From positions 6,034,687-6,098,686 of the forward strand of contig OZ316895.1 in NCBI GenBank assembly GCA_973895155.1: a DNA stretch of 64,000 nucleotides. The letters are read 5' to 3'. The notes under the pieces were generated by a model. That model was not told the DNA's origin. It did no database searches and saw only the letters and a list, made by a program, of their open reading frames with translations. Each line of letters begins with the position of its first letter. The stretch's first letter is position 1. Below are positions 516 through 50,689 of the stretch, piece after piece. The stretch is from Marsupella aquatica. Its lineage: Eukaryota; Plantae; Marchantiophyta. The translations under genes were made by a program, and so were the position numbers.

Positions 516-2053
516 ATTATCTCGACCCTACACCAAACACTGATTATTAGTTAGGGGTGTATATTTGCAGAAAAGTGTGAAGCTTACCATAACATCCATT
601 TGGGTCTAAATGTTCTCGACCCTCTACTAAAGAAATAGGGTTTTACTTATAGATACATACTCATAGAAAGGTTAGTCTATTCGGGTCTTAACCCTGTACA
701 AAAAGAATAGTAAGTTAAAGATATACATTCAACAACGGGTTAGAATTATCTGGACCCTCCATTTGGGTCGAGATGATCAGCATATAGATTTTTACATAGT
801 AATTGATATGCATTCAACAACTGGTCAGAACCATCTCGACCCTGTAAAAGTAGGGTTATAATTTTATAACACATCACTTGTTTTCCCGGAGTTCCGTGTT
901 CATGACCCTTGGTTAGAGTGTGTCATTTTTAATGTTATCATTTGAATTTATGGTATTGTCAAACTAATATTGTCTTATTCTATATTTTTATCTGTTTATC
1001 TGTTTATATTTTAATTAATAATATTTATAATTATAACTTAGTTATTTAATAATTTGAGCATTACAATTGTAAATTTAGACTTTGAAAAGTGTACATTTGC
1101 CCACTAAAATGTATGTTTTTGGGGACAATGTTATAGAATTTTGGGGTGTAAAATAATAGATTTGAACGTCAACTTCTAGACTAGAGAAATTCCAGTTTTA
1201 ATGAATAGGGTGATAACTAATATTGTGAACCAAAGCCAGTTCTCCTTGCATTCTTGTTGAAGCATGTAGCCAAAAAGACTACGTTGAGTTGGATAAGGGT
1301 TGCATACAGGGTTGGATACTTCCTATTCTTAATGTGACATGCATCTAAGCTAGTTACATAATCATACTTAGGTTGAGTATAGTTAAGTGACTTCTCTGCT
1401 TGTTGGATGCACAATTAGGCCTTCCGTTAGAGTGTATTTCCGGTTCATCTCTCTTTCTCTGGTTTTTGTCTTTACCCTCACTTTCAATTATGCTTTAATT
1501 AGAAGTTACTCTCTAGAGGCTTCACTCTAGACAACATGCTTTCAACGTAGCTTTCCATCACATATTAGTAGCAGAAGGTCACGAGAAGCACAAGACAATG
1601 TGCATCAATTTACAAGCTGTGATAATATGAGCCTCACCCTTAGTTGACTCTAGTACAATGTACTCTAAAGCTAGGGGCAATTGTCTTGTGACTCCTGGAA
1701 GGCCTTCTGGTCATGGTGCTCATGGCTGAAGCTCCAATAGCAGACAGCTTCCAAACTTTCTGGGCAGGTCTACTTGAGTGCTGGCCAATGAACCAGGTAA
1801 CCATACACTAGTGAGTTAGACTACAGACTTTGGTCTATTGTTCAAGGCAAGGTTCAAAGCTCTTGCTTGACAATGACACACTTGTTTGCATGGTGCTCAA
1901 TTCAGTTGATAAAAATGGCGCACAAGATTACTATGATTGGTCATGGCAGTTTCAAATTGACAATCTGCAATCTGAAAAACCCTACGTACTTCCCAACGTA
2001 CATACAAAAGATTTCAACAACAAACTCTATTGTGTCATAAGATTCATATAAAG

Positions 2054-2085
2054 AACACAATGACGGACCAAACGAGAAGTGTGAC
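2054..2085 (+). repeat. Left terminal inverted repeat
   Basis: Inverted match to 12523-12554 with 2 mismatches, preceded by AAAG. Confidence 0.9.
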
Positions 2086-3148
2086 CACCCTTCTCGTTTT
2101 GCCCGATCGCAAAATCGCGGCTAAGTAAAGAAATCTCCAGTACAAAATGCCCATGAGTGAGAATATTGTTTGTTTTGGAGTCTTGAAAGTGAAGAGCGAT
2201 ACGCGGATCGCTCTTTGCATTGCGCAACCAAACAGTTAAAAAAAATCCACTTGAGACGGTAAACTGCATAAACTGCGCGGTTGACTATGAAACTTAACCC
2301 ATGGTTAATTCTAACTCAACTGTGGTTAACGGAAACTAACCATGGTTAATGGCCAAAACTATATATATGAGTGCCCGGCCGTTCATTTCTCTTTTGGACA
2401 AACACATACCACTTGGTGCTCCCTGATCATTGTTTACCAAGCTGCAAAACTAACCATACAAACCTACATTCGAGTATCAATCGCACGTTTGATACGAGTA
2501 TCGAAGGTTGCATTTGATCCTTATTTTGAACTTGAAATAGGAAAATCGATACCGGTATCGCCTTCTCTATTCCGGTTAGACTTCTTGAGAGGTGTTTTTC
2601 TTTTGCTAGGCCATTTGCGAATGCCCTCGATGATACGCATATCGCAAATTGGATTGCGGACCCAACTTTTGTGTTAGTGGGAAACTTCTGACACCGATAG
2701 CGCCAAACCAATTGAAGATTCACACAGGAAGCTTAGTCTTTTTGCGAGAAGGTACGGGTACCATACTAGGTTTTGATTTTATTTCCATTATAGCGGCCAT
2801 TTGCTAACATTGATCGGTGGTTTCTTAAACAGCTTGTAGAGGCACGAGAAGCATCCGTCACTTTGAAGGTATGGTTACCATAGGATCAATGTCGAGCAAA
2901 CTTATTGGCAAGCCGTATTCATAGGTTGTGTAAGTTCTAGAACATGTATATTTATGAAACCAAGTTATGTAGCCATATGATTTCCAGCTTCAATATGTTT
3001 ACATGTTTGTGGTAAATTCTAGGGTTTGGAGAGAGCGAGACGATACCAGTATCACGGTTGTCATTCGGAAGGCCTACTCCAAAGAGACTGGTATCATAGA
3101 TATCATTAAGTATATTAATCGATTGCACCTACCCTCTAATCCGTAACA

Positions 3149-6100
3149 ATGGCGCCCAGTCAGAGGAGTGGTTCTCAAGATGATGAGAGTTTGATGAGTA
3201 GCCTCTGCTCTTCAATCTGGCAGAATGAGGAGATTTGTGATGAGCAGAAATTCCTGAAGAAGAACTGGCATGTGCGCGACGCTATCAGAATGTTTCCTGA
3301 TAAGGAAATTGACAAACCTTTTTTTTGGGTTCAAATCAAGAAGTCTAAGAAGGTTACCCTTTCATTCGGTCCGGTTGTAGCGTTTGCAGTTTGTGACTAC
3401 GTGAAGGGAAGAGGGAAAGATAAAGAAGCCAAGCAGGCTTTAAATTTCTTGACTATGACGAGGACGAAGCCGTTCACTTCTATTATTCTCGGTGTGGATT
3501 ATTTTGACTTGAAGGCGATGGAAGCACACCCAGAGGATGCAGTTTTCAAGGAGTTGACAGATATTTTCTCTTGCGATTTAAAATTGACCCCTGAATGGTT
3601 TGAGAAATATGTTGTAGATGTGACGAAGTACTGCTGCCACAAGTTCAGGCAGAATACAAGAAGATTTTTGGACAGGATTTCAAAAGACACTAAAATTGAA
3701 AGTCAAGAGAAAGACTGCAGAGGTAAGTGGGAGCTTGACAACACAGGATCAGGTTGACAAAGATCGTGAGGGAGGATCAACCGGTGGAACAAAAGTAGGA
3801 AGTAAAAGTAGAACAGGTGGTCAGCGAAAAGAGACTAGCCAAGGACCGAGTGATGAAGCGGTGAGTGGAGGTGCATCAGGGAGCCACCCGAGAAGGAAGC
3901 GATCCGGTTCTCGTTTGAGTAAAGATGATGACACCATTGGGGAAGTGGAAACCAAAAATTTGAGTGACGTCCAAAAAGGGAGAGACACCACCGCCGCATC
4001 CGAGGGAGCTTTAGAAGTTGAAATGTTTCGACAAGACATTGTAAGTAATGTTTAATCGTTGAATAGTCCAAAGAAAGTGGTTTGATGATTATTTTGGATT
4101 TCAGTACCAATTGCAACATCCGTGAGCTTGTGTTACCTCTTTTGAACATGCGTTATGCGTGACTTTTCAGACAATCAGGTCACTTGTGTTTTGCTATGAA
4201 ATTTATGATACCGGTATCGGTTGAAACATCCCCATTATTGTTTATAAAGCTTTTGTTCCTCTCATGCTTGGAAACCTCATCCTAAGATGTTTTCTATGTA
4301 GGATGGAGACGATCTTACCGCACTTGAAAAGTATGAGACTGATGCCCTGCGCGCAGATCTTTTTGAGTTGATGACGAGTCGTAGAGTACTACGAACTACT
4401 ATTATTTTAAGTGTGAAAAATCTCATTCTTGATGAAGGATCTGATGAATCTACCCTCATCCGCCCGGTGGATCGTTTACATGTGGAGAATATCAAATCTC
4501 TTTTGATCCAAAATCCAACAAATTTTAGCGCACCGTTTGTTCTTCATGTGGACCCAAGTGATTGCCCAACAGTCAAGGATTGGGACCAGTCTAAGTATAT
4601 GAACTGGAAGTATAGAGTGATTGGCGGGAATCATGGTGCCCGGGCGAAGAATGAGTTGTTTGAACAATATGGGAAAAAGATCTTTAGAGAAGTTGAAGCA
4701 TGGGTTTACGCTGGCCTCTCAAAACCTGAGTTTCGAAAATTGGGTTGGCAGCATAACATAGACCAGGAGTACAGGAAGACAATGACAAATACTGATAAAC
4801 TCAGGGCCTGTCATAATTTGTATTTGGAGTTCATGCAAACGAAGAAAAAGGATCTTCGATTTTCTTGTTGCAAGGAGTGTGGCCTTGTGTACAATCCGAA
4901 GGATAGAGAGAGTGTTTCAAAATATGATCCAATGTTTCAAATTGCATTTCGGCACGGAGAAATATGGGATCTTACAGATACAATTTTGACAATGTGGTCA
5001 AAGTTTGAGGTTCTTGGACAGGTGAAGGCGAAGTCTCCTGTAAAGCCTGCTCCTCCCAAGGGCAAAGGGAAATCAAGAGCGAGAGCAAAACCTGTATCCC
5101 AAAAGTTGCACAAACTAGGAGGGGATATCAACTTCTTTCCATTCAGAGCACTTCAAGGTCTTGCAAATGAGGAGCAGCAAAAGCGGTTATTGAGGAGGGT
5201 ATTATCCAAAACTATAAGTCTTGATCAGATGCACCGTGAAGGAGAGCTCTTGAAAAAGCTCTTCAAGATAAGGAAATTGTTTCTCCAAATATCCGGTCAG
5301 CCAGATTGGGCTACATGTCGATTGTTATTTCCTGAAGAAACTCAGGTTTCAGTTCTGACAACGTGGACGGAGAAGTTGAGCGACCAGGTAAAGGAGTTTT
5401 TCATTACTTATATTGTTTTATATAGCTTGAAAGAGAGGAGCGATACCTGTATCTGCTTCTCCATTGAATTATTTGTTATTTTCTTTCATTGTGGGTTCTA
5501 GAGTGGAACCCAATACGGATGTCATTTTTTTTAGATTGAAAAAGGAGATACTGGTATCTACTTCTCCATTGTGGGGTCCTGATTGAATCCCACTACCGGT
5601 ATCATTTTTTGGAGTTTGAAAGAGAGTAGTGATACTGGTATCTGCTTCTTCATTGACTTTTGTGAAGCCTTGCAGCTCAAAGCATACTCCAAAAGGAAAG
5701 TGATACATGTGGAGGAGACCGAGGTTCAGCCGGCAAAGCAGATCAAACTCCCGGCTAAAGACATTCCACATTATTTCCGGAATTTTGTACTTGGAGCGAT
5801 TGAGAAATACAACTGGCAACAGAACATCGCGTCTGTTGAGATTGCTTCAACAGATTACGCCTGGAAGAACGCTGATGGGGATTCTTTCCCTTATTCATTG
5901 CATCTTGGAGATGTTCATCGTTTGGAGGGGTTCTTGAAACCCCAAAATTATACTCTCGCTGTTGCTGATGTACCATATGGTTTTAATGCCCCTGGGTCTG
6001 AGTTTGATGAAGTTCCTTTTTCAGAACAGGATGTCGTCGAGATGGTCACCTCTTTTTCCAAGGTGCCATATTGCCCAAGCTGGAATATGGCAAAAGACAA

Positions 6101-6693
6101 ATATTCATCAACATCCATCTGGCCCAAGATTAGCTTGGGCCTTTGAGAATTGGACCATTGGGTACTACTCGGAGGAAGGAATTCAAAAAAAAGATATGTA
6201 CAATTTTGAGCCAACGGATTCGAGGGTTAACATCATCAGTATCCCTTGTGTCACAACAAAAGCCCTAACACCACTGGGGTTTATTGTTAACCCTTATCAG
6301 AAGCCAGTTGGAGTGTCTGATTGGTTTGTGAATTATTTTAGCAACAAGGGAGATTGGGTGGCAGACTTGTGCTGCGGGACAGGGGCAACTTTGGTTGCGG
6401 CCCTTTTGAATTCTCGCAACGGATGCGCGGTGGATAAGAGCTCTACTCAAATTGAGTATGTCAAAAGTCAAATCATGACTTTGGACTCTGCTTGGAGTCT
6501 ATTTGACAAAGCCTCAATTGTCGGAGATGGAGAAAGCTCTAAGGAGGTTCAACCTCCCATTGGCGATGAGCTAGGTTCAATTGGAACGGATGCTTATGTA
6601 AACGAGTCGCCAAGGGAAGATGAAACTGAAAATGAAGAGCAGCTTCCGCAGATGCCCAACGATGAGGATCTTAATGAAATGTTGTTAGATTAG
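3149..6693 (+). pseudogene. Transposon-borne ParB/Srx-like domain + beta-class N6A/N4C DNA methyltransferase fusion; 3 predicted exons (3149-4040, 4302-5387, 5676-6693), 2 frameshifts
   Basis: Phase-0 GT-AG introns 4041-4301 and 5388-5675 join the ORFs in frame. The ParB-like signature reads IRPVDRLHVENIK...PFVLHVD...YRVIGGNHGARA...AWVY...HN. MTase motifs appear in beta order: LHLGD, catalytic ADVPYG (DVPYG at 5967-5981), IWQK, NPYQKP, then SAM-binding VADLCCGTGATLVAA..RNGCAVD. Frameshifts occur near 3692-3695 and near 6063. Confidence 0.8.
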
Positions 6694-7804
6694 TTAAATA
6701 AAACATTATGTAATATGCCACTCTTAGTTGTCATTATTAGAGCTACATGGGATTTGTACTTAGTAAATATTAAATCTGATACCAGTATCTGGAATATCAT
6801 ATGTAGCTTTATATCAGTATGTACACTTTCCAGATGATAAATACTACTTGCAATACCAGTATTGGAAATCATATTCCAAACGGAGAAGGAATCAAATAGA
6901 ACCCAATTAAACTGCACTTTGGATGTCTATTCTAAACTGATGTGGGACTGTTTTCTATCGAGTGAAATAGTGCGACACTTTCTATGCAACTCAAACTTCA
7001 GTAGTCCATCAAGAAAATTCAGGGTGATTACTAAATGTGAACTTGTGTAAATTGTCTAGACAACTTCTGTGCAATGGATCATTATATCCAAAGCACGGAG
7101 GTTGTCAAGACAGTCTACATGAGTTATGTTCACATTTTTACAAGAGGGCAGTTGGTTTGTTAGTCAACAACCATCAAACTGATGTGTGCAAGGCACAAAA
7201 CAACAAAAAATACAATGGAAACTATAAAATTGATGATGTTTGTACCTCAGATGTTTTTAAACGTCTGAGGTAACTTCATCATCGATGCTATTCAGAGTAT
7301 CATTATGCGATGCAATACTATGAATATGACCCCATTTTGGGTTTGCTCTAAACAGCTCCGAAAGCATACCTTCTCGAGATTGCAAATGCAATATCTAGTC
7401 CATTAATATTCGTGAACTCGATCTTGCATTCAATCTCACGAAGGCAAGCTTTCGGAATGAAGTAACCACATTTAGTGGCTTGAAGGTGGCTTGTTTGTCA
7501 TTTGGTAAGTTATTGTTTCTGTACACGGTTTATATGGCAATCGGTACACAACAAAGCAAGGAGCGATACTGGTATCGTATCTGGTTTTTGTAGTCATCTT
7601 TTTACATGTGTGAGAGATACTAATTTTGCTCGATGGAAATTTATTTTCACTATAAGGTATTGGTACACATTCGACACTGATACGTTTTGGTACACATTCG
7701 ACACTAAAATACATTACCATTCAACAATATGTCCAAAAAAAAGCCGCTTCTTTATAATAAAATACTATTTACGATACCAATATCAATAACCACATTTGTT
7801 ACAA

Positions 7805-10800
7805 CTACAAAATTTCTTCAAGCTGTACATCTAGCATGGCTGCCTGAATAATTCTTCGTGTTTTTGCTGGCAAGGTGTTGTTTGCATTCAAAGAAAAATT
7901 GTAGGCATAAATTGCAGTTTCAGAAAGGCAGATCTCTCCATGCAGAGCTTTGTTTGATGATGCTTCCTTCTCAGGATAATATTTTCCTTCAATTGCTGAC
8001 AGCTCCTCAGAATCCATCGTGTACCATGATACCAATATTGTCAGGCACTTCATCAACCTTGGTCAGTATTTTGGTAACCTTTGCCATCCAAAAAGGCCTC
8101 CCATTTTGATCTGCATGGGCTGCAACACAAGTCATTGAATATTTGTTATTTACTTCAAGAATCTCCTACCTCGGAAATCCTCTTCCGAGCTCCACAGTAC
8201 ATGGCCTTCTCTGGACCTGCAATTTTCTCAATGAGATCAGGTTCAATTGTAGGCGCCCTCCCATCCATCAGGGTCTCTCGATGCTTGTTTGATTTTGGCC
8301 AGACCCAATCAAACATCCACTGTGCTGGCTTGAGGTGATTTTGGATGACATCTTCCTGTTTGTCAAAGAAATTCAGCCACCACAACTTATCCTTGTCGTC
8401 AAAATAATTGAATCCCTCCTCAATCGCTTTCCAATATTTCTCCAATGTTTCTCTTTCTACTTCACCAGTAGCATCTGCTCCGTCCCCTCCATTGGTGCTT
8501 TTCAACGCCATTTGAGGTGCAACCCAGAATGTGGTTGTTGGGATGTAATTCACAAACTCCATGGGATCACCCCAACTTGGGGTTGTTGAAATGTGTTTGG
8601 CATGAAACAAAACTTTTGGAATTCCATTTTCCCCAATCACACGTTTATTTGGAATTGCTTTTGAAAACTGATCTGATGAAGTGGTTGCAAAACATGCCCG
8701 GTTGCCCCAGTCCTGTTGGGTTGATCTTTATCGCTCACAAACTTCCAAAAATCCGCTGTTTCTTCTACAAATATTATCTCAGATTTGGGATTGTACGAAC
8801 CCTGTATAATGTCAACAAGAGTATCCACTCGGAAAGCTTTGCGTTTGTTCAGTTTTGAGGAAAATTTGCTGAACATTTGGTCTATCTGATCATGTGTGTG
8901 GCCAACCAGCAGAAATCCAACCTTGATCTTCTGGAAAACCCCCAACTCTACAAGCATATTTAAGTAAGCAAACAAGAATTTATTCTTGTTCTCCCGAGCA
9001 GTGTTATCCAACTGTAAATATAGCACCGGAGGTAGCACTCCCTCCCAAGTATTCAAAATATTTTGAATAACATGGATTGTAAGGTTAGAGTCATTGTGAA
9101 TATTAGGGTAATTGACATATACCTTGGCCTTCAACTGACCATTGAATATCAAACTGCCCACCACATATAGAGATAAAATATTTCTCATCCATGTTTTTTG
9201 GACATCTGGTGAAGTGCGGTAACTCCGTCTTCATTTGGTCCATCCCATCAATACATATCCGCAAGTACTTTTCTGGGTGCTTGTAACATTTATTCCGGTG
9301 CTTTGCTAATTTCTCCCGCTCGACTCCTTGTGCTGTGCGATGCTTTTTCAACAACATAGCATACTTACCTGAGAAATATCAAATCGGTAACAAAGTTATT
9401 ATAAAAACATTATTGCAACACTAGACTGCTGGTCTATTGGCATTTTGAGGTGTGTGGCAAAAACCATCTTCCAATGCCAAGACCTATAAATTTATAGGTT
9501 TTGGTATTCTAAGCTCAACAACACATCCAATTCCAATCAATATGGATAAAACAAAAACTTACTTTTCTCTGATTCGAGCGTAGCTTTGTCACAGAGAGCT
9601 TTGAATTCTGTGCATGGACCGCAAGTCGAAAAACAACTTCTTTTTGGAATACAAACTCGAGGAAAATGTTGCTTCCATGTCCGACAGAACCAAGAATATG
9701 TAACCCCTTGTTCTTGGCGCAACAGAGTTTCAGTTCGGAAGGCATCAAAGACTTCAGCTTTCGTCCAATTGTCAGGCAAATGAAAAATTTCCTTATTGGG
9801 AAGTCTTTCAACGTTACTCCTAAAAAAATCATTTAACCACTCTATTAAAGTAAGATGAGTGGAGGATTTTTCTCTACAAAATACATTGTTCTCGATACGA
9901 GAGAACATATTTTGGGTTATCCTTTGAAGGCGATTATTTCCAATTGAAAATAATTTCTTAAAACCTTCTCGACAAAAAGAGTTTCCAGACACACTGTACC
10001 CGCATGACCCACTCTGGTTATTCCTAACGCATCCTCTTAGAAGTATATTCTTCTCTCCACGGGTCAGGCCAAAATAATAGGTACGCTCTTTCGTTACTTC
10101 AAGTAAACCGAAAGTCCTCAAACACATATTGTCACAACATGGATACTTGAACACTTCTTTCATTTTTCTCCTCTTTAAATTCTCACTTGTAACAATGTCT
10201 TTCTTGGCTATCCTATCCCTATGTTTCTTACTAGGGACTTTCAGTTTCACCCTATCCTGAAATTCCCTTGTTGAATCATCGCTTCCATGGTCTTCACAAA
10301 CCTCTTCGATGACGTCCTCATTGTCAGTGTTTGGCTCACTGAAAAGGTGGCTATAGCTACTCTGTGGCTCATCGCCTCCATCATCAGCTTCTAAACATTC
10401 TAACACAACTTGTGCAATTACTTCGGACTCTCTATCGTGTACAGAGGCATCTTCCAGACTTTCTTCATCACCAGAATCATCAAAAGATTCAGAACATACA
10501 ATTGGAGTTCTGGGTTCTCTAAACTTGACTTGAACTATTGCATTACGAGAAATACCTACCCTAGGTAACCCATACCTTCTAACTGGAAATCTTGAAATAG
10601 TACCCGTCTGAATTGGCGTTGTCTGTGGACTATTCTCTTTAGGACCATTATCCTCATTTGGACAAGATTCAAAAAGTCTATGCATACACTTTCCTCGAAG
10701 CATTCAAGATTGAGTGGAGATAGGACTTTGGAGTCCCATGAAAGCCACCCTATCAGTGGATGTCCGCCCCAACACTGGCAATGCTCAAGGCAATACGCGT

Positions 10801-11237
10801 ATCGTCTTTGGTATTCGCGACTCCGTTGGCTCTCGAAAAATCCTCCTTTGCACCTGAGAGCTAGTGCTCACTGAATTTCTCGGATCCAATCCTGACGCCG
10901 ATACCTGTATCGTTCTTCGGATTCCTTCTCCATATCCGGGAATATATGGATGGTTTATAACAGCGTCGAGCTCCCAAACCTAGTATTGTAAGTTTCTCTA
11001 TTCCTGGTCGAAGAACACTCAGTAGACGTTGTTTATCTGGCTTACTAGGGGAGACATATAATAAGACCCTATCTCTGGCGCAGAACCACCGTTTGAGTCT
11101 GAACCGGAATCCAAGAGTTCGGGTATGACACGCTGGGACGGGGAAAACTTCTTCAAGATATGAGAAGGTAGAAATCTTGTTTGAACATTAGGAGATGACT
11201 CCACAGAACTCTCTTGGGAATCAGATGTACGAGACAT
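7805..11237 (-). pseudogene. Transposase, Sola-like/DUF7869-type DDD family, frameshifted
   Basis: Segments 9537-10703 (Cys-rich CCDNMC, CREGFKKLF, FSTCGPC), 9103-9357 (ICIDGMDQMKTELPH), 8637-9188 (LYLQLDNTARENKN...FLLVGHTHDQIDQMFS), 8155-8640 and 7805-8056. Predicted intron 9369-9562. Frameshifts near 9185, 8640, 8160 and 8030. The 5' start is uncertain (ATG 11237 is a candidate). Confidence 0.85.
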
Positions 11238-11402
11238 GATGAATCAAAAACTCTATGGCAGTTCACATTCGTCTCTTGAACCTAGTGTTGCAAAGCTTGT
11301 CTCATGAACTTAGGGAAGAGAGATAGGGAGCAGAGAGATCTAGACAGCGGAAATGACTCCCGACCTCTAATGGAATGAAGTCCGATAACTTGAGCGTCCG
11401 CG

Positions 11403-11450
11403 CTTTTATAGTCACTGTGGCGGAAGATTTACGTGGCAATTTTTGATTGG
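11403..11450 (-). promoter_or_regulatory. Candidate TATA box (CTATAAAAG) and CCAAT box for the transposase
   Basis: Minus-strand CTATAAAAG at 11403-11411 and CCAAT at 11446-11450, upstream of ATG 11237. Motif match only. Confidence 0.35.
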
Positions 11451-11573
11451 CTCCCGCTAAGTGGCAAAATAGTCTAGAGTCGGGCCCCCATAATTGGTCC
11501 CTGTATCTGAGTTTGGAATTGATGTTTGAATTTGAGCAACATTTAAATTAAGGTGGTCAAAAAGGTGAATGGC

Positions 11574-11990
11574 AATACCAGTATCGCTGTTTGCATTGGA
11601 GTCATTTAAATGTGATCCTGGAGGACGACAAATACCGGTATTGTTATGTTTATTGGATTGGCATTAAAGGTTGTCGGGAGAAAAAGCTATACCGGTATCG
11701 CGGTCTGTATTGGAGTGGTGTTTACAGGTGGTCAAGGAGGAAGAGAGATACCGGTATCGTGGTCTGTATTGGAGTGGTGTTTACAGGTGGTCAAGAAGGA
11801 AGAGAGATACCGGTATCGCGGTCTATATTGGAGTGGTGTTTACAGGTGGTCAAGGAGGAAGAGCGATACCAGTATCGCGGTCTGTATTGGAGTGGTGTTT
11901 ATAGGTGGTCAAGGAGGAAGAGCGATACCAGTATCACGGACTGTATTTGAGTGAGGATTACAGGTGAACCGGGAGGAAGAGCATCACCAG
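11574..11990 (+). repeat. Subterminal tandem array, 59-bp unit (about 4.5 near-identical units plus degenerate ones), each containing GATACCRGTATC
   Basis: Palindrome cores at 11688, 11747, 11806, 11865 and 11924 give a period of 59. Degenerate units at 11574 and 11631. Confidence 0.95.
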
Positions 11991-12522
11991 TTCGCTAGAG
12001 GAAGGACTAAGAAATGAGTCCGGAACAATTACAAATGGACATTGCCATTTGTATTCTTGTTTCAACGTTGACAATGAAATTTTGCAAACTACGTGGTGAA
12101 CTACGAGGTAACTTCAGCTGACTGTGTGGTGAACTTTGATGTAAAAAAATATTAGAATGTGGTAAATATTTCAAAACCTTCGTTTTATGAAAGAAACGGC
12201 AAACAAAGTTGAATGGAATTCGAGGAGCGATACCGGTATCGGAGTAGTTTTGTTTTCTTGATCTGTTTTCCTTGTAACCAAAAGTTCTATTTTCAAAATC
12301 TAACCAAAATGGAAATATTTCTGGGTTCTATTGTCGCAATGAAAATGTTTGAAGTTAGTGAGGATATTGAAATTCACAATTTGGGATGAAGCCATCATTC
12401 CTCGCGAAGTTGGGAACGATATGAAGTAGTCGGTTTTGCATGATTTTGCAAGAAATGTGTCGCGCACATTGTGAAAATCGGCGAAAATTGATCAAAATTG
12501 AAAACACCCTTCTCCATTAGGC

Positions 12523-12554
12523 GTCACACTTCTTGTTTGGTCCGTCACTGTGTT
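12523..12554 (-). repeat. Right terminal inverted repeat
   Basis: Inverted match to 2054-2085, followed by AAAG. Confidence 0.9.
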
Positions 12555-13180
12555 AAAGTTATTGTGGCATTGGTGGAAGTGGCAGCACACTCCGTCGCTT
12601 GTGTACAAAATGTATCATTTTCCGTGATATACTGTTGTGGTAAAATTAGATAACTGAGCTATAAAACATGCAATCATCTTTTTATCAACATGTGCCCACA
12701 AATAGTACATGATGGTTTACTCTGTCTAGGTTACATCAATGTCGAAGAGATGAGAATTCACTAAATACGAGACTAAATAATATGAACTAACACCATACAT
12801 CTGCTACTCTATGATTTGTGTCAGAGAACCCTTACACAAAGCATCTCATAGAGTGCATATTCCCGTGCATATTATTTAGTGAACTCTCGGCAACTAGCTA
12901 CTCTATGAGTTGATTCTCTTCTCTCTCTCCAATCTTCAAGTCTTGAAGACTCTCTAGTGTGAGCACGATAAAGTGCTCCTCCAGGTTACAGGCTCTCTTC
13001 ACTAAGTAGTCTAACTCCAGCACCCGTTAACCGTGGTTAAGCTGTGCTAATTGAGTAAACCTCACCAGGCACTAGAGTTCAGTCCCACCATATAGATATC
13101 TCTGGCCTTGCAGCTTTGACCTTTTGAATGACTCACTTTGTTCCACTCTACTGGCCATATATGCTACAAAAGTGTTGTTG

Positions 13181-19400: not shown

Positions 19401-21969
19401 TGCTACTTGAGGCCTCCAGGATCCAGCTTGTCCTCTCACAGAATTATTTCGAGAACACTTTTCAGTTGCGTGACGAACGTGAAATCCATTGCCAAGCACT
19501 GAAGCGTTTACGTGCGTTCTGAAAGGATAGGCATGGCGAGGGAACATTAGCACGAAATAATCTTTGCGCTCAGCTCTTATTACTCAGGACGTAGTCAGTG
19601 TTCTAGCCTAGCCTGTGTGACCTGGTGTGTTCGCGGGGAAGCGCCATTGTGTATGTAATTTGTGGAAGCGGAATGTATACAACGTTTTTCAAAGTGGGCT
19701 TACTGTTTTTGTCATGTAAATGTTGCGTTGTTGGTCGCATTTGGGCGCTCCGAATTGAAGTTTATACGTGCAGTGACCTTACGTTGTATTCAGTAACGGT
19801 AATCGTTGCCAGAACTTGCATCTGAGGCGAGCAGAAACGTCGCATTCTCTGAGACTTTCCGTAATAAAATTAACAACCTCAGGATTAGATTGGTCGTACA
19901 TAAGAGTTAACATTTCCTAGTCTTATACTTAAAGAGCATGATCACATGTGACCACGATGATCATTTCCCTTCCCTACTCGTCTCTTAAGAGGCACCCATG
20001 CGTGGGACTACGAATCTGAACCCGGATTAGTCGAGCCCGGATCGTTGTCAAGATAGTAATGAAAACCAAATTACTTGAAAAGGGAGAAGGGCTGTCCAGC
20101 GAGAATTTGAAAAGGGCACTCGGTGACCATGAATGAAAAACCTTTTCTGCTGGTACAACCTTGATACTCGTATCGAACTTTTGAGATACAATTGTTTCTT
20201 TGTCTTGAACCCGATCTCTTGTGTCTTCACTGCTTTTCTATCCACAGAGCCCATGAGTTTCCAATGCGTGCTAGGTTCCCGTGCTACACAGCAGTCGTGG
20301 ATATAGTCGCTTTTAGTTACCTCCCACCAGCTCATCTGCTTTCCCCCGCAAACAGCCGGAGCCGCATGCAATACTGTTATGAAATTGTGATTTGTCCACA
20401 GGAACAGTCGAGTCGGTGGAAGCATGGAACTACTTAATAGTATTCATTGAGAATCAAAAGAAAACGGCTTGGAATTTGGAATTTGGAAAAGAATGTTCCT
20501 CTTATAACAACATGCAACTGTAGATTACTACTTTCACAACGCCGCCAACGTGACCCCTCCATTTGCTTTGATTCGGTGCCGGGTGATGGTTATATTCGGT
20601 GCCGGGTGATGGTTATCGGCTATCGAAGCTTTACATAGTTTAGATGGGAACCACTTTGCCGGCTCCAACGAAGAGAAATTCCGGTCTTGCGGTCGCGTAC
20701 TATTCCTTCGGAGCCAGCATTTCCTCTCCCCAGAAAAAAGAGGAAGCAAAGGATTGGGAAACACACATTCATTCTGGCTACTGTTCTCATTTCGGACGAA
20801 GTCGTGGCATTTCGCCCGGAGAAATTTCAAGGTGGAGCTTGCGCTCTGATCATGGAGATGGTGTCTCGTGGTCTCAGCATGGGTCGCGATCAAAATTCTA
20901 CACCAGAGATACTTCCGAAAAAGAATATGCACACATGTCCTCCCACATGGCCAGGGTTGGCGTGAGTATGGGCCGCGATCAAATTCTGTACTGGAGTCCT
21001 TCACAAGAATATGTACACATGCCCTCGCACATGGTCAGGGTTTAGCTGGCACATATCAAAATCAATACTTGGATACACTCTCTGAAAATAAATTCAAGGT
21101 TGTGTGAAGTCATTTCTAATAAGGAGATTTTATTTTTTATGATAACTTTTCTTTTCAATATCATGCTTAGTTAGAACTTAAAGGAGGTATGTGCTTGATC
21201 AACCTCCAAAATGAAACTTGTTACATGATAGACCCCCTGAGGTCTATGAACGCCCCAGATCTGAGATTGAAAGGTCCATCAACGGTCCAGATTGGGGAAA
21301 AGTATCGAGGGGGTTGATTAAGCAAACTTTTTCCAGAAAGGGGTCTACTAGACATATCCCTTGAACTTAAAGCCCTCATGGACACACACACATTTGGAAA
21401 AAAGCCCGGATGGACCACACACAACCGAGATAGACACAATCCGAACTTCATTTTTTGCTCGTGTAACATGCTTTTTGATTGTAATCCCAAAGTGACCTGT
21501 AAGGAGGTATGTGACCAGGACCAGTCGATATTAGGTTGATTCTTCCGGTAGTCCGTCCACTTTTCCTCCTGCAAGGATGCGGTGACCTTCTAACTCAACC
21601 ATATGGTCTAAAACAAGGTTTCCTTCCGTTAATGAAAGACTGTAATCTGTTTGATAGGTTTAATTGGAGATTCTTCTTACAGTGTCACATGGTTGTGTCC
21701 ATCTTGGTCGTCCCAACAAACTTGTGTCCATGAGGACCGGGATGAGGACTTTAAGTTCTGATTGGTTATCTCTTTAATTTACTTTTTCAATGAGTCAGCT
21801 AATTCTGAATAGCCACAAGAGTCTAATTGCACCAAGATTATCACAGTGAAAATTTTAACGATTTCCATCTCCCTTTGACTCATACAACCCCATACAAGTC
21901 CTGTAGGGCAGGTTCTGGCTTGTGTGCATGATCTGGGGCGTAGTGCATCCGGATTCTCACCTCCCTATG

Positions 21970-22473
21970 TCTAAAGTGCCCTCCTCCATCCTCACAGGGC
22001 ACTCCCAGCCCAATGCCCTTCTCCGAGGGTGATGGAACTACCAGATTTCTCAGTGTGAAGATCTCAGGCCCTTATGATCTTATGTGGTTAACCATAGTGA
22101 AATCACTACTCTAAACCACTATGGAAAAATGACATTGTAAAAATAACCTAGGAATGATGGCAAGTCATGATAATTTAAAAAAAATTATCAAGTCTGTAAT
22201 AAAACCCAATTTCTAAAATTGAATCTAAAGTGCCCTCCTCTGTCCTCACTGGGCACTCCCAGCCCAATGCCCTTCTCAGAGGGTGATGGGTACTACCAGA
22301 TTTCTCAATGTGATGATCTCAGGGCCTTATGATCTTATGTGGTTAACCAAAGTGAAATCACTACTCTACACCACTATGGAAAAATGACACTGTAAAAAAT
22401 TAACCTAGGAATGATGGCAAGTCATGATAATTTGAAAGAAAAGTCTCGCTGTAATAAAACCCAATTTCTAAAA
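21970..22473. repeat. Tandem duplication, about 254-bp unit x2
   Basis: TCTAAAGTGCCCTCCTC starts at 21970 and 22224, with near-identical downstream sequence. Confidence 0.9.
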
Positions 22474-23324: not shown

Positions 23325-25644
23325 GTGATAATTAGTTACAAGAGATTCCATCTTTGTCAATGAAAAGTCTACAGTAGTCATTTTGGCGGAAAAATAGTAG
23401 GTATTTTTGTCTTCGAGTAACCTTTTTCTCTCCTATGGTTTTTTTTGTCTTCAGTTAGTCACTTTCCCACCTAGCCTCAGTCCCCCATTGGCCAGAATTC
23501 CCACAACAGCCAGAATTTTGATGGCTATGTTTAAATCTAGTAAACTAGGTAATCAATGCTTTTTCTAATTAAAAAAGGTAAAGCACGTTTTTAACGGGTT
23601 CTCCTCCTTCACACACTGAGGGAGTGAGGGTGGTGACTGTGACAATCGCCATTCGACACCCCTGGCGAAAAGGAAAAGAAATCCTGTACAGTTACCCTTA
23701 CATAATTGGTCACCTTCCTAGTGCGACAGGATTTAGTGGAGCTCATAGGATTTATTAGGATAAGCTGAATGTAGGGTGGAGGGACTATGCTATCCGTGAT
23801 TGACACTTCATTGGCCTCGCTTCGCTGACATCAGCCTGTCCACTGCCAAGATTTCCTGGCACTCCCCCATCACGTGGGTATGTTATACTGCCCAATAGCA
23901 TTGCTGCAAAGAAGCTTGTCAGTGGCTTATGTCCCGTGGACTGATTCACGTTTGGGTCCCTCCAACCATCCAACCAACAGCCATTCTGCTGCCAGGTGTC
24001 TTTGAGACGCTACCCCAGCTTGTCAGCCACCTTCAGGGCGAGCATGAGATTCTAAAACACTCAGATGTGTGAGTGAACTAATTAAGGGCCATCTTTCATA
24101 TGAGGGTCCTTAAATTATCGACCCTTTAAGTGATTTGGTGGCACATGGTTACTCTTGGAGCCTTTCCTGTCTCACCCTCACCCTCCTTGTGTGCCAGTCC
24201 TCGGCAACAATTCAATTTTTTCAAAGGCAAATAAGACCTAAATTTAAATATTAATCCTTTATTGACCGAACCAAGATAGCACTAAGATAATAGTAAGTCC
24301 ATCTGTTGTCAGTATTTAACAAGTACATCAAGTAATACCTCCCAGAAACATTCGAAAATATTGGAAGCATCATTGGCTTTTCTTAAAATCGGTTTTCTCT
24401 GAAATATGAAGGCTAAGCATATTGTATCCATCACGTGATATCCCAATGTCTCAAAGTCTCAAAGTCTTTCGCTAAAATTATATTGACGGAATGCTCCACA
24501 ACAAGAATGTCCCACAACACTGGGGATTTGGACAGCCTGTCCTTTCGGTGGTAATTCTCATGTTGTTAGGGAATTGATGTGGCGATAAACTCAAGGGTCT
24601 AGGAGTGAGAAATAAACAGGACCTAAGATTTACTCATAAATATTACTAAAATTATGGAAAGTCATTACAGAACTGCTAGATCTTCATTCTTCAAGGACTT
24701 GGAGAATCCAACTGCAGCGATTTTCCCCCTGATTTCCTTTGCATCATTAGTCAGACACTTTTGCCGACTAGAATGTCAAGTGATAGACCGGTTTTCTTTT
24801 TAGTGGAAAGCTTTGCCAACTAGAATGTCAAGTGATAGACCGGTTTTCTTTTTAGTGGAAAGCTTTTGCCAACTAGAATGTCAAGTGATAGACTAGTTTG
24901 CTTTTGAGTGGTGATAATTAGCTACAGTAGATTCCATCTCACCTGAAAAGTCTTGTCACTTTGATTGAAAAGTCATAGGTATTTCTGTCTTCCAGTAGCC
25001 TTTTTCTCACCTAAGGTTTTTCTGTCTTCCATTAGTCAGTTCCCACCTAGCTCCAGTCCCTCATTGGCCAGAATTCCCCTGCCCACCTAGCTTCAGTCCC
25101 CCATTGGCCAGAATTCCCCCTCCAGCCAGAATTTGATGGCTACGTTTAAATCTAGTGAACCTAAATAAAGAATGGTTTTTCAATTAAAAAAAAAAGGTAA
25201 AGATTGCTTGTAACGGCTTCTCCTTCACACAAAGTAACATTCGCCATTGGACACCCTGGCGAAAAGGAAAAGAAAAGCTCTAGACCTAGGCTCACATAAT
25301 TGGTGACCTGGCTAGTGCGACAGGATTTAGGGGAGCTCATAGGATTTATTAGGATAAGCTTTATGTAGGGTGGAGAGACTATACGATCCGTGATTGGTCT
25401 TCATTGCCCTCACTTCGCTGACATCAGCCTGTCCGCTGCCAAGATTTCCTGGCACCACCCCATCACGTGGGCAAGCTATTCTCCGCCTGTGCGCTGCCAA
25501 GATTTCCTGCCACACCTATCACGTGGGCATGCTATTCTCGCCAATACCATAGTTCCAAATTTCCAATGGAGGTGGCTCTACTCCCCTGGACAGATTCACA
25601 TCTGGGTCCCTCCAACGATAATAAAAACTAATGCTGCCAGGTGT
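23325..25644. repeat. Two diverged direct copies of a ~700-bp repeat (about 23325-23999 and 24911-25644), with a ~53-bp tandem array at about 24761-24900
   Basis: Shared blocks include GTGATAATTAG, CCCATTGGCCAGAATTCCC, ACACCCTGGCGAAAAGGAAAAGAAA, CTTCGCTGACATCAGCCTGTCC and TGCTGCCAGGTGT. Confidence 0.8.
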
Positions 25645-25884
25645 ATATTAAACTTGTGTCACACCTTATGAAGCACTGAAGGTCTGAAGCAGTATAGGGC
25701 AGTCTCTCGCATGTAGACCGTCCTGGAAAAACGGCCCTTTAGAAAATTGGTTATTGGTGACAGGCTCTGAATGAGACAGACTTGCCCCCTCCTGAGACAG
25801 TCCTATGCGGCAGTCCTATGGCAGTAGCAGAGGACTTTGGAGGGCAAGGGGAGTAAACTTTCCAGTCCTTCACCTCCAGACCGT

Positions 25885-26640
25885 TTATATTTGAATAAGA
25901 AAGATAAGATAATAGAAACCAGTTTCCATAGCAAACCTTTTATATTTGAATAAGAAAGATAAGATAATAGAAACTACTTTCCATAGCAAATTTTTTATGT
26001 TTGAATAAGAAAGATAAGATAATAAAAACCAGTTTCCATAGCAAACTTTTTATATTTGAATAAGAAAGATAAGATAATAAAGACCAGTTTCCTTAGCAAA
26101 CCGATACCATTGAGCAGCGCGATACGGCAGAGAGACCAGGATACTATGGCAACAGATTACATGCCTTTGTGCTAGCAGATTCTGTGGAGATTTGCTCACA
26201 CTTTTGCCAGACAACTTCAGTAGTATTAAGGGATGACTTTCTGAAGACCTTGCACATGCAAGACAACCATCTTGCAAGTGGGAGGTCCTCAAAAGACCTG
26301 TCCCTAAAGTAACTTATGGCAATGTATGAGTGAATGAGACTTTCATGAGAAAGATAAGATAATAGAAACCAGTTTCCATAGCAAACCTGTACAATTGAGC
26401 AGCGGGATACGGATACGGCAAAGAGACCAGGATACTGCAGCAACAGGTTACATGCCTTTGTGCTAGCAGATTCTGTGGAGATTTGCTCAGCACTTTTGCC
26501 AGACAATTCCTTAGTAGGAAGGATTGATTTTCTGAAGACCTTGCACATGCAAGACAACCATCTCGCAAGTGGGAGGTCCTCAAAAGAACAATCCCTAAAA
26601 TAACTTATGGCAATGTATGAGTGAATGAGACTTTTCATGT
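25885..26640. repeat. About 54-bp tandem array (x4) running into a ~290-bp tandem duplication
   Basis: TTTGAATAAGAAAGATAAGATAAT...CAGTTTCC..AGCAAA is repeated; about 26065-26345 resembles 26348-26638. Confidence 0.85.
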
Positions 26641-27055: not shown

Positions 27056-27367
27056 TCATTCAGTGAGACTTTCATGCCCTCGTCTGGGCCCTGATAAGGC
27101 AGGCCTGCCTAGTATACTTATGTGGAGATCATTCAGTGAGACTTTCATGCCCTTCTAGGCAGGCCTGACTACATCTCATGTGGAGATCATTCACTGAGAC
27201 TTTCATGCCCTCCTAAGGCGGGCCTGACTACATCTCATGTTGGAGAGCCAAGGGCAAAGGCTGAAACTTTCCTGCCCTCCTTAGGCAGGCCTGACTACAT
27301 CTCATGTGGACATCATTCAGTAGAGACTTTCATGCCCTCCTAAGGCAGGCCTGACGACATCTCATGT
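27056..27367. repeat. Tandem array of ~58-70-bp units (about 5 copies)
   Basis: Recurrent CATTCAGTGAGACTTTCATGCCC...AGGCAGGCCTGACTACATCTCATGT. Confidence 0.85.
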
Positions 27368-49467: not shown

Positions 49468-50689
49468 CATATCTGAGATTGAGGCTGCTTCTTAGTACAA
49501 GTGCTAAACTGAATGCACATACTCACAGGTAACTACAGCATGGGCAGAATTGAACTATGAGCAACTGAGATAGAAAACATACCTTGCTTTCCATGATGCT
49601 TTCATATTCTATTCAAGTCAGTGCTCCATCTAAGTCTTCGTATTCTTTGTTGAAATGAGACCTCCAATTATTCACTCCTGGCTTGTCTCTCTTGGATCTT
49701 CTCCAATCCGTTGCATCCTTGAAGAAAACATTTAGAGGACACTCAATAGTATTCACAAGTTAAGTACGTTTAGGGATTGCTCTTAGAATAAAAACATTTC
49801 GTCTTCTCCCAACTGCTGATTGATATCGTCCAGAGTGTGTGTGAAGTACGCGATTTGCTTATCCATAGGCACGGTCGTGATCTACAGGCCGGACAAAAGT
49901 CAATTCTTGAACCAACCTTTTCTGCTGATCGAAAACGCGGCCGGACCTCGAGGGACGGGCCGTCTAACCGATTGTTGTTGACGGGCATCTTGTTCGAAAG
50001 AGAGCTCTAAAACTAAATGCAGCAGTGCACAGGAAAATCCTCGAATCATAACCGAGACGGACTGCATGCAAGAGCCAGTTTTCCGACGAGCTTACAAAAT
50101 TCGTCCCAGTGTACGTCATCGAGAAAGCCAGCCGCTCCTGACGCTTAGTTCAGTCCATGAAAAATAATGGAACCGTTTGTTTGTGGATCAAGACAGGCAG
50201 GAAGATAGGGGACCTGGAAAATATCACCTGCATGAGACCAAACAAAGAGCATGGATCAGACATCTCAAAAGCTTGCTTAAACAGAAATTCGTGAGCAAAT
50301 TCCGACTAAAACTTACGAGTGTCGCAGCGTTGACACTTACATACGATGTCCAACACGGTTCGCCCATTGCAGACGCGGCCACTTGGTCCGAGTGGGAAAT
50401 CGATGCCGTTGCGGAGGATATTGCCCCTCGACAGCGCGCGACTGAACGAAGTGTTCTTTCCATGGTATGTCACTCCTGCCAGCTAGATTGTGACAAAACG
50501 TCGTGAATCGTAAAGTCGTGTGAAATGGTGAATTTAAATGGTGAACCTTAGCCATTCATATTCCATTCTCACAGAAGATTGTTAGTTATAAACATTGATG
50601 TCTGAGAACTAATCTCATGTTGAGCTTCTCAAGGTAAGAGTAGCTGAAGTCTATCAAGTAGATTTTCTAGGAAGGAAGAGTATAACGAC

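Follow-up and report, generated by a model that had tools for sequence, protein, structure and literature searches.

A 64-kb stretch of the genome of the liverwort Marsupella aquatica (contig OZ316895.1, positions 6,034,687 to 6,098,686; hereafter the window) contains a DNA transposon of 10,501 bp (2054-12554) whose non-coding DNA is studded with copies of the palindrome GATACNNGTATC. The element has two convergent genes, a DUF7869 transposase gene on the minus strand and, on the plus strand, a gene in which a predicted ParB-type fold is fused to a DNA methyltransferase (MTase). We found that a bipartite site of ~38 bp, AAT-N9-GATAC-NN-GTATC-N9-ATT, has this palindrome at its core, and that related elements carry their own variants of the same frame in the same places. 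From sequence comparison and a structural model, we put at about even the chance that these sites form an array serving the ParB-like MTase that the element encodes and co-evolving with it.

Repeated palindromes occupy the non-coding DNA of the element

Sixteen exact matches to GATACNNGTATC were found in the window, and 15 of these lie inside the element, with starts at 2491, 2548, 3042, 4207, 5442, 5547, 5631, 6778, 7565, 10900, 11747, 11806, 11865, 11924, and 12229. A preliminary description of this DNA had counted the same 15 copies by eye and had judged them too many for chance; dinucleotide shuffles gave an expectation of 0.04, and none of 100 shuffles reached 16. With one mismatch allowed, there were 23 matches in the window and 22 within 2198-12240, compared to 1.2 expected. 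At up to two mismatches, 30 matches lay inside the element and 18 outside, and palindromes of the GATACNNGTATC form never exceeded two copies when the element itself was shuffled (0 of 150 dinucleotide shuffles). All seven near-matches listed in the preliminary description were real, those at 3084, 7773, 11574, and 11688 with one mismatch and those at 5592 (given as 5593), 6852, and 11631 with two, but three further sites with one mismatch, at 2198, 2632, and 10792, had been overlooked.

The element restriction of the palindrome was judged against the remaining 53.5 kb of the window. The earlier statement that no copy lies outside the terminal inverted repeats (TIRs) has to be corrected, as the sixteenth exact match, GATACTCGTATC, is located at 20163-20174. 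This copy has neither the AAT boxes seen in the element nor neighboring copies, and it is probably a chance occurrence (about 0.04 are expected per window). A second palindrome, AACCATGGTT at 2338, was considered as a repeat family and rejected; it is present in a single copy in the window.

By our gene model, non-coding DNA makes up 4,381 of the 10,501 bp of the element (42%), and each of the 22 exact or one-mismatch sites falls within it. Sites were present in every non-coding segment of both genes (Table 1), which agrees with the earlier remark that copies avoid the exons and occur in both MTase introns and between the genes. The largest group belongs to a tandem array (period 59 bp, 5.4 copies, 89% matches) that lies upstream of the transposase gene; six of its sites have at most one mismatch, and the one at 11631 has two. 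The sites also extend up to ~5 kb from either end, a wider spread than that of classical subterminal transposase sites, as had been suggested; En/Spm-type subterminal confinement was not observed, since 11 of the 22 sites lie >1 kb from both ends.

This distribution bears on the proposal that the palindromes are subterminal and internal sites of the DUF7869 transposase, serving assembly of a transposition complex as in En/Spm, Ac, and P elements, with the ParB-like/MTase protein acting elsewhere or without sequence specificity. We consider this unlikely, if well worth weighing. It accounts for the clustering of sites within ~600 bp of the left end and within ~1 kb of the right end, the latter including the seven-copy array, and for the finding that the palindrome is, beyond the TIR, the only 9-mer common to both subterminal regions. 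It is also consistent with retention of the right-hand array in a deletion derivative in which 2306 is joined to 11610. More than half of the sites, however, are 1 to 5 kb away from either end, within the introns and 3′ regions that the two genes have, and a palindrome does not point toward either end, in contrast to the hexamer TGGTTA, which is oriented and recurs at mirror-image distances from the termini. Counted from the left terminus, TGGTTA lies at 249, 270, and 290 nt, and counted from the right terminus, at 249 and 275 nt; read inward, it has the same orientation at both ends. Its window-wide frequency is 3.4e-4 per base per strand. Judged by these positions, the hexamer is a plausible candidate for the subterminal site of the transposase, distinct from the palindrome, and if it is, the palindrome need not serve the transposase.

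The palindrome is the core of a bipartite site

We folded 25 sites, i.e., the 22 with at most one mismatch and those at 5592, 6852, and 11631, into 50 half-sites. In the half-sites, GATAC is preceded by (G)C, and an AAT box is located 9 nt further out. Its three bases were conserved in 42 (A), 39 (A), and 34 (T) of the 50 half-sites. Outside the tandem array, AAT was present at exactly this distance in 22 of 36 half-sites, against a background of 2.7% (p ~6e-26). The preliminary description had pictured a 12- to 14-bp palindrome bound by a dimeric helix-turn-helix (HTH) protein; a ParB-type fold with an HTH was indeed recovered in the predicted structure described below, but the site is larger than proposed, being bipartite and ~38 bp long.

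The two central bases of the core look simply unread. CpG decay was considered as the origin of this variable spacer and proved only partly tenable, as the spacers GC, CT, and GA also occur and the spacers of the related locus L001 are free. CpG is restored in other copies of the element at 11936 and at 2631/2639, where T>C at 2631 and A>G at 2639 convert the site at 2632 to CGATACGCGTATCG.

Related elements carry lineage-specific words in the same frame

A scan of metagenomes with an alignment of seven ParB-like sequences returned 14 loci (L001 to L014). Four of these, L001, L002, L003, and L005 (51 to 55% identity), are colinear with the window MTase gene exon by exon, and L002 and L003 continue into a convergent transposase; the four are members of the window element's family. 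Some are themselves decayed, with an in-frame stop in exon 2 of L001 and stops near the end of the ParB-like part in L003. BLASTN similarity between the window and these colinear relatives was confined to exons, and the introns and untranslated regions (UTRs) could not be aligned.

Within the introns, upstream regions, and 3′ regions, the relatives nevertheless have arrays of variant words that keep the same 14-bp frame and occupy the same places. The window word is CGATAC NN GTATCG, and the variants are CGAGAC..GTCTCG, the hybrid CGAGAC..GTATCG, and CGATCCAAACATCG. L001 contains seven copies of GAGACNNGTCTC (CGAGAC NN GTCTCG; 0.01 expected), and L003 has 5 to 6 copies of this same word. L005 contains three copies of the hybrid CGAGACGGGTATCG (CGAGAC GG GTATCG), at 948, 2054, and 2129, and L002 contains 19 copies of CGATCYAAACATCGG (CGATCC AA ACATCG; 0 expected) at up to one mismatch, on both strands. 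The variant words in all four loci flank or separate exons. The AAT box is retained along with the frame: of the 14 half-sites of L001, 14, 13, and 14 have its A, A, and T, respectively, and of the 12 half-sites of L003, 12, 12, and 10 do. In L002, where there are no true palindromes, the AAT box is present on one side only, beside the asymmetric core.

Two more distant loci, L009 and L011 (28 to 30% identity, with PF01555 downstream), have palindromes of their own, CATGATATCATG and CATGCTAGCATG, placed upstream of the gene and in an intron. Minus-strand open reading frames (ORFs) upstream of the gene in L009 were of low complexity, matched no Pfam family, and did not reveal an accompanying transposase. 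A repeated site was thus found in 6 of the 14 loci. Dinucleotide shuffles never matched the site counts of the relatives (0 of 150 for each), and ten 5-kb control pieces of the window gave at most 3. The words are specific to their lineages, as GATACNNGTATC was found once across the 14 loci (13 of 14 lacked it) and the L001 word occurs at chance level in the window. Hybrid GAGAC/GATAC sites account for all three sites in L005 and for one in the window, at 3084; they could be intermediates between lineage words, or that base could be loosely read.

Lineage-specific bases on a shared architecture fit a co-evolving sequence-specific protein. They would fit a co-evolving transposase equally well, except that the arrays of the relatives stay close around the exons of the ParB-like/MTase gene. 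In every lineage with arrays, the sites crowd around or inside this gene, in line with a ParB-like reader.

The constancy of the outer box raises another possibility, namely that two proteins or domains read a composite site. The outer AAT would be read by one module (the MTase, the exon-1 domain, or the transposase) and the inner palindrome by the ParB-like HTH, an arrangement that would couple marking and transposition. Conservation of AAT across lineages while the inner core varies, the constant 9-nt spacing, and the one-sided box next to the asymmetric core of L002 all speak for such a division of labor. Exon 1 has no recognizable family, and we hold this reading, a pure conjecture, to be quite improbable.

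We also weighed a reading with no dedicated protein, in which the palindromes are nucleic-acid structures (DNA cruciforms, or RNA hairpins of introns and UTRs that feed small-RNA pathways) or tiny foldback insertions that have multiplied within the element. The palindromes of L001, L003, and L011 extend to 32 to 38 bp and yield predicted hairpins of -10.8 to -18.5 kcal/mol, and such palindromes would form in transcripts of both convergent genes. In the window, on the other hand, complementarity between the arms hardly extends past the core (matches at 3.3 of 9 positions, versus 2.25 by chance) and the predicted DNA hairpins are weak, at -2.7 to -5.2 kcal/mol, yet the boxes and their spacing are kept. 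Because hairpin potential is not conserved but the boxes are, a protein site is favored over a nucleic-acid structure. The L002 sites that are not true palindromes, the lack of any Rfam match over the element at E <= 0.1, and the presence of only one bare core in the 53.5 kb outside the element point the same way, and a purely structural role strikes us as very improbable indeed.

The accessory protein has a predicted ParB-type fold fused to a methyltransferase

The MTase gene consists of exon 1 (3149 to ~4040), exon 2 (4302-5387), and exon 3 (5676-6693), colinear with L001 to L003; introns were defined by GT..AG and by colinearity with the relatives. In the window copy, frameshifts near 3618 and 3681 interrupt the gene, as does an 86-bp deletion at 6065-6077 that falls between motifs IV and I of the MTase. 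The ORF at 5938-6693 matches PF01555 (N6_N4_Mtase) with an E value of 2.1e-7 and 31.6 bits, above the cut-off of 26.7, and the same family was found in L001, L009, and L011. Motif IV (ADVPYGF) precedes motif I (DLCCGTG), which fits beta-class N6A/N4C MTases, in which (D/N/S)PP(Y/F) comes before the S-adenosylmethionine (SAM) motif I. Motif IV is kept as AD[VI]PYGF in the window, L001 to L003, L009, and L011, and motif I is kept in the window and L001 to L003 (DLCCGTG) and in L011 (DLCAGSG); the L009 contig stops short of motif I. The aspartate of motif IV presumably points to adenine as the target.

The exon 2 product eluded several sequence searches. A search of the Protein Data Bank with the ParB-like exon found nothing at E values up to 10, a word-index search for longer relatives likewise found none, and Pfam gave chance-level rows only for exon 1 and the start of exon 3. 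No relative was seen in a scan of viral contigs with the seven-sequence alignment. A full HMMER search retrieved 156 relatives, and the fusion to PF01555 is conserved in 7 of 31 long homologues and in 8 of 42 members of the alignment. Named relatives came from Chara, Riccia, Ginkgo, Adiantum, sea cucumber, amphioxus, and sea anemone.

An AlphaFold2 model of the ParB-like part, built on the 42 relatives, had a pLDDT of 88. When this model was searched with Foldseek, all 11 matches with E <= 0.001 were ParB or Noc, with E values from 2.1e-5 (the best, 6sdk_A) to 1.5e-4. VIA-align superposed its N-terminal domain (model residues 31-158) on 7bm8_A over 98 residues (Z 10.9, rmsd 2.2 A). The N-terminal domain together with the HTH aligned over 186 of 190 residues with 6t1f_B, the Caulobacter ParB on parS (Z 9.0), and over 200 of 209 residues with KorB 8qa9_B (Z 8.8), while model residues 161-320 aligned with 4umk_B (Spo0J-parS; Z 5.7). 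At the level of the predicted fold, it is justified to call the accessory protein a ParB/Noc/KorB type, with a ParB/Srx-fold N-terminal domain followed by an HTH. The fusion of a ParB-like part to an MTase, suggested in the preliminary description, is upheld in this sense, the ParB side by predicted structure and the MTase side by PF01555. A homodimer prediction for the ParB-like exon scored 0.31 against a mark of 0.32, with controls at 0.00. Bacterial ParB, Noc, and KorB bind palindromes of 13 to 16 bp as dimers, so that the predicted fold of the accessory protein is that of proteins binding palindromes of this size, a further point against assigning the sites to the transposase.

On the transposase side, the ORF at 8637-9230 matches PF25273/DUF7869 (E 9.2e-48), and all 124 homologues retrieved contain DUF7869. 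Its named relatives are unannotated and come from ferns, the liverwort Riccia, Chara, sea urchins, amphioxus, a sponge, and bivalves. Transposase-like and ParB-like proteins have adjacent locus tags in Riccia sorocarpa (R1sor_010795/010796) and Chara braunii (CBR_g31111/31112), with the partners on contigs of equal size, and both families also occur in echinoderms, amphioxus, and cnidarians. From the adjacent tags, we infer that the transposase/ParB-like gene pair is old.

The residue ahead of the conserved FQ[IL]AFR helix (in 4302-5387, near SKYDPMFQIAFR) differs among lineages: the window, L002, and L004 have P, L001 and L003 have H, and L009 and L011 have N. In those with a known motif, the P/H/N residue parallels GAT, GAG, and CATG half-sites; with few independent lineages, this apparent correspondence is anecdotal. 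The ESM Atlas clusters nearest to the ParB-like exon (4302-5390) were fungal DUF3723 proteins, with a score of 0.96; DUF3723 is a common accessory gene of the fungal Starship elements. Of the 25 Pfam families that were listed for these 42 ParB-like relatives, none was PF12520.

A candidate reader-writer and its alternatives

If the sites are an array for the ParB-like MTase, the protein would land on the ~38-bp site as a dimer, and its ParB-like HTH, not the transposase, would read the inner palindrome with one half-site per subunit, like ParB on parS. The tethered MTase would write N6-methyladenine (6mA), or N4-methylcytosine, on or around the sites. Such a system could serve self-marking or self-regulation, either as anti-silencing or as control of expression and transposition, comparable to VANC on VANDAL21, TnpA on En/Spm, and KorB on its operators. 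Protein and sites would co-evolve, and each lineage would then address only itself.

Several observations weigh against this role for the ParB-like MTase. The ParB likeness depends on predicted structure: the exon 2 protein (4302-5387) gave no match to ParBc (PF02195) in Pfam at E values up to 10, the 42 relatives hit 40 Pfam families at E up to 1, of which the 25 listed did not include PF02195, and the HTH_ParB model had a weak match in 1 of the 42 (E 0.032). GERRxRA is the CTP-binding motif of ParB, and the equivalent stretch in the window protein, IGGNHGARAK, is missing two of the arginines, with GGNH[GS]A kept in the relatives. A repeated palindrome was found in none of the seven loci of an AT-rich clade (L006-L008, L010, and L012-L014; 33 to 39% identity), including the 4.6-kb L007, and the hybrid half-sites of L005 are awkward for a simple homodimer of single specificity.

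Other points concern the sites themselves. Copies of the motif are concentrated at the two ends, a pattern also seen with transposase sites, and the deletion derivative that keeps the 59-bp array fits a cis role in transposition equally well. Because both genes travel together, co-variation does not tell one protein from the other as the reader. Of the 18 substitutions in the single divergent copy of intron 2 that was compared, 5 hit the 40 core bases, which make up 12% of the stretch (run X6 gave no contig over intron 2); one site is gained, that at 5592, which in this copy is an exact GATACCGGTATC, and two or three are broken. This comparison gave no sign of purifying selection on individual sites.

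A bolder version of the proposal, which we rate as distinctly unlikely, would make the bacterial ParB-type reader and the adenine MTase the private epigenetic writer of a widespread lineage of eukaryotic transposons, present in streptophytes and marine animals. The protein would deposit 6mA on a 38-bp address that recurs in each non-coding segment of its element and so escape or tune host silencing. Reader and address would drift in step, by single bases (GATAC, hybrid GAGAC/GTATC, GAGAC, GATCC), with every lineage marking itself alone.

Comparison with known systems

The predicted fold is shared with the bacterial ParB-parS, Noc-NBS, and KorB (RK2) systems, of which structures 6t1f, 7ol9, and 8qa8/8qa9 were matched. 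About a dozen KorB operators are spread over the mobile replicon RK2, in and away from promoters. The window gene differs from these in being eukaryotic and intron-containing and in lacking a ParA partner; the likeness to parS raised in the preliminary description does not extend to a partition system, as no ParA gene was present among the ORFs or Pfam hits of the element. In addition, the C-terminal dimerization domain of ParB is replaced by the methyltransferase, the CTP-binding arginines are not conserved, and the window site has outer boxes.

TnpA of En/Spm recognizes repeated 12-bp subterminal motifs, in both orientations near both ends, and also regulates the element. Like the predicted reader in the window, it is a DNA-binding protein that its element encodes besides the catalytic transposase, and it has a repeated motif; it differs in that its motifs are subterminal only and in being transposase derived and without an enzymatic domain. 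This comparison drew in part on a preprint (bioRxiv 10.64898/2026.08.24.746577).

A tested parallel concerns VANC21, which was shown by chromatin immunoprecipitation sequencing (ChIP-seq) and electrophoretic mobility shift assay (EMSA) to bind YAGTATTAY motifs on the Mutator-like element VANDAL21 of Arabidopsis (PMC5735166). As described there, a transposon-encoded accessory protein acts on a short motif of its own element, a role that is only predicted for the protein in the window. The VANC21 motif is likewise located in introns, in intergenic regions, and in DNA that is terminal and non-coding, is rare elsewhere, is often tandemly repeated, a means by which it spreads, and shows single-base differences among related subfamilies. 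The two systems part in other respects: VANC21 is an unrelated protein (DUF1985/DUF287) with no methyltransferase, it causes loss of 5-methylcytosine (5mC), and the 9-mer on which it acts is non-palindromic, with its copies arrayed in a single orientation. Pfam did not find DUF1985/DUF287 in the accessory protein of the window, whose modeled fold is ParB-like.

Two algal transposons are similar in protein content. Sola1-1_Ec32 of Ectocarpus carries a gene for a ParB-like protein with an N4C/N6A MTase, and its authors suggest that the product may bind and modify its own transposon, as stated in the passages on this element (PMC12477816). These passages describe a 4-bp target-site duplication (TSD), termini starting with AAC, and a ParB-like/MTase gene on the strand opposite the transposase, all as in the window, and an element of 21.5 kb with 282-bp TIRs compared to 10.5 kb and 32-bp TIRs here. 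They mention no binding motif, and a search for the window motif in the paper's supplements found none. The termini are AACAC...GTGTT in the window and AACCG...CGGTT in Sola1-1_Ec32, and unlike the Ectocarpus element, the window element has its named relatives in streptophytes and marine animals.

The second, PAG3 of a red-algal (Bostrychia) Plavaka element, combines a ParB-like part with a 2OG oxygenase, and its authors propose binding and modification of its own element (bioRxiv 10.1101/2025.02.11.637652). In the text of this preprint that we drew on, the likeness lies in a ParB-like accessory protein with tandem inverted-repeat arrays beside its gene. The differences are the transposase superfamily (EnSpm/Plavaka), an oxygenase instead of the methyltransferase, and arrays that are adjacent to the gene, with no description in that text of dispersal through introns and UTRs or of lineage variants of one frame. 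ParB-HTH/Dam fusions are also listed for chlorophytes and chytrids by Iyer et al. (PMC4738411). A literature search that left preprint supplements aside found no paper naming a repeated palindrome for ParB-like/MTase elements.

Termini, copies, and surroundings of the element

The element is bounded by TIRs of 32 nt at 2054-2085 and 12523-12554, which are 94% complementary. The sequence AAAG lies directly outside both TIRs and thus represents a 4-bp TSD, and this combination of a 4-bp TSD and TIRs is as in Sola1 DNA transposons. We aligned contigs from four public sequencing runs (two organisms) to the region. Contigs broke off exactly at 2054 (24 in X1 and 12 in X5, with differing flanks) and exactly at 12554 (5 in X5), identifying these positions as the termini of a multicopy family. 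One contig, fusing 2306 to 11610 and retaining the right-hand 59-bp array, represents an internal-deletion derivative.

The window copy is decayed compared to other copies in the public runs. The latter have 97 nt in place of the 11 nt at 6065-6077 of the window, corresponding to the 86-bp deletion in the MTase exon, and extra bases at 3618 (+T), 3681 (+A), 8159 (+8 nt), and 8643 (+T). The frame breaks in the window ORFs are therefore due to bases lost relative to other copies; in the transposase gene, the frame shifts at least twice, near 9180 and near 8700, and 8 nt are missing at 8159. The left flank (1500-2053) is highly repeated, with a summed contig depth of 1,326 in X1 versus ~250 within the element, and the element probably sits inside another repeat.

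Table 1. Coordinates of the element's genes, termini, and repeated sites in the window
Feature	Position	Strand	Evidence
Left TSD, AAAG	2050..2053	.	Sequence
Left TIR, begins AACACAATGACGG	2054..2085	+	Inverted-repeat pair, contig break-offs
Left subterminal cluster, four sites: 2198 (1 mismatch), 2491, 2548, 2632 (1 mismatch)	2198..2643	.	
Three TGGTTA repeats, candidate subterminal (transposase?) sites	2302..2348	+	Word scan
Two sites 5′ of MTase start codon: 3042 exact, 3084 hybrid GAGAC..GTATC (1 mismatch)	3042..3095	.	
ParB-like/N6_N4 DNA methyltransferase gene	3149..6693	+	PF01555, predicted fold, colinear relatives
One exact site, MTase intron 1 (likely 4041-4301)	4207..4218	.	GT and AG from sequence
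Four sites, MTase intron 2 (5388-5675), in 80-bp tandem repeat: 5442, 5547, 5592 (2 mismatches), 5631	5442..5642	.	
Two sites 3′ of MTase stop codon: 6778 exact, 6852 (2 mismatches)	6778..6863	.	
Sites at 7565 (exact) and 7773 (1 mismatch), 3′ of transposase stop codon	7565..7784	.	
DUF7869 (Sola1-like) transposase gene, multi-exon	7805..11237	-	PF25273, ORFs
Two sites, transposase first intron: 10792 (1 mismatch), 10900 exact	10792..10911	.	
59-bp tandem array 5′ of transposase, seven sites: 11574, 11631, 11688, 11747, 11806, 11865, 11924	11574..11995	.	
Right subterminal site CGATACCGGTATCG	12229..12240	.	Exact scan
Two TGGTTA repeats (TAACCA on + strand)	12275..12306	-	Word scan
Right TIR	12523..12554	-	Inverted-repeat pair, contig break-offs
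Right TSD, AAAG	12555..12558	.	Sequence

Elsewhere in the window (21970-22473, 24758-24911, 25880-26639, 27088-27368, and 50263-53429), unrelated tandem arrays have units of 255, 52, 55, 291, and 60 bp, and an unrelated direct duplication of 1.37 kb contains 46- to 47-bp arrays and inverted repeats of 74 to 102 nt. Prolyl oligopeptidase exons at 58631-60824 on the minus strand (PF02897; E 5.5e-32 and 1.2e-12) belong to an ordinary host gene.

Significance

Proven cases of a transposon protein that recognizes its own element beyond the ends are few; VANC is one, and TnpA is another. For the ParB-like accessory proteins of algal transposons, own-element binding was proposed in 2025; among systems of this kind, it is proven only for the unrelated VANC. 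New here are the bipartite site of ~38 bp, its exclusively non-coding placement, the lineage variants at the same places, and the match of the predicted structure to the ParB/Noc/KorB fold. These findings give the ParB-like/MTase class a concrete candidate site, a natural series of site variants from related elements, and, in the P, H, or N before the FQ[IL]AFR helix, a residue that may set specificity. They bear on whether eukaryotic transposons mark themselves by means of a bacterial-type reader-writer and on the co-evolution of specificity and target. If the bolder version of the proposal is true, the family would provide a eukaryotic, transposon-borne counterpart of the evolution of parS/ParB specificity. 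Reader-writer pairs of this type could also be put to use as tools for sequence-directed DNA methylation.

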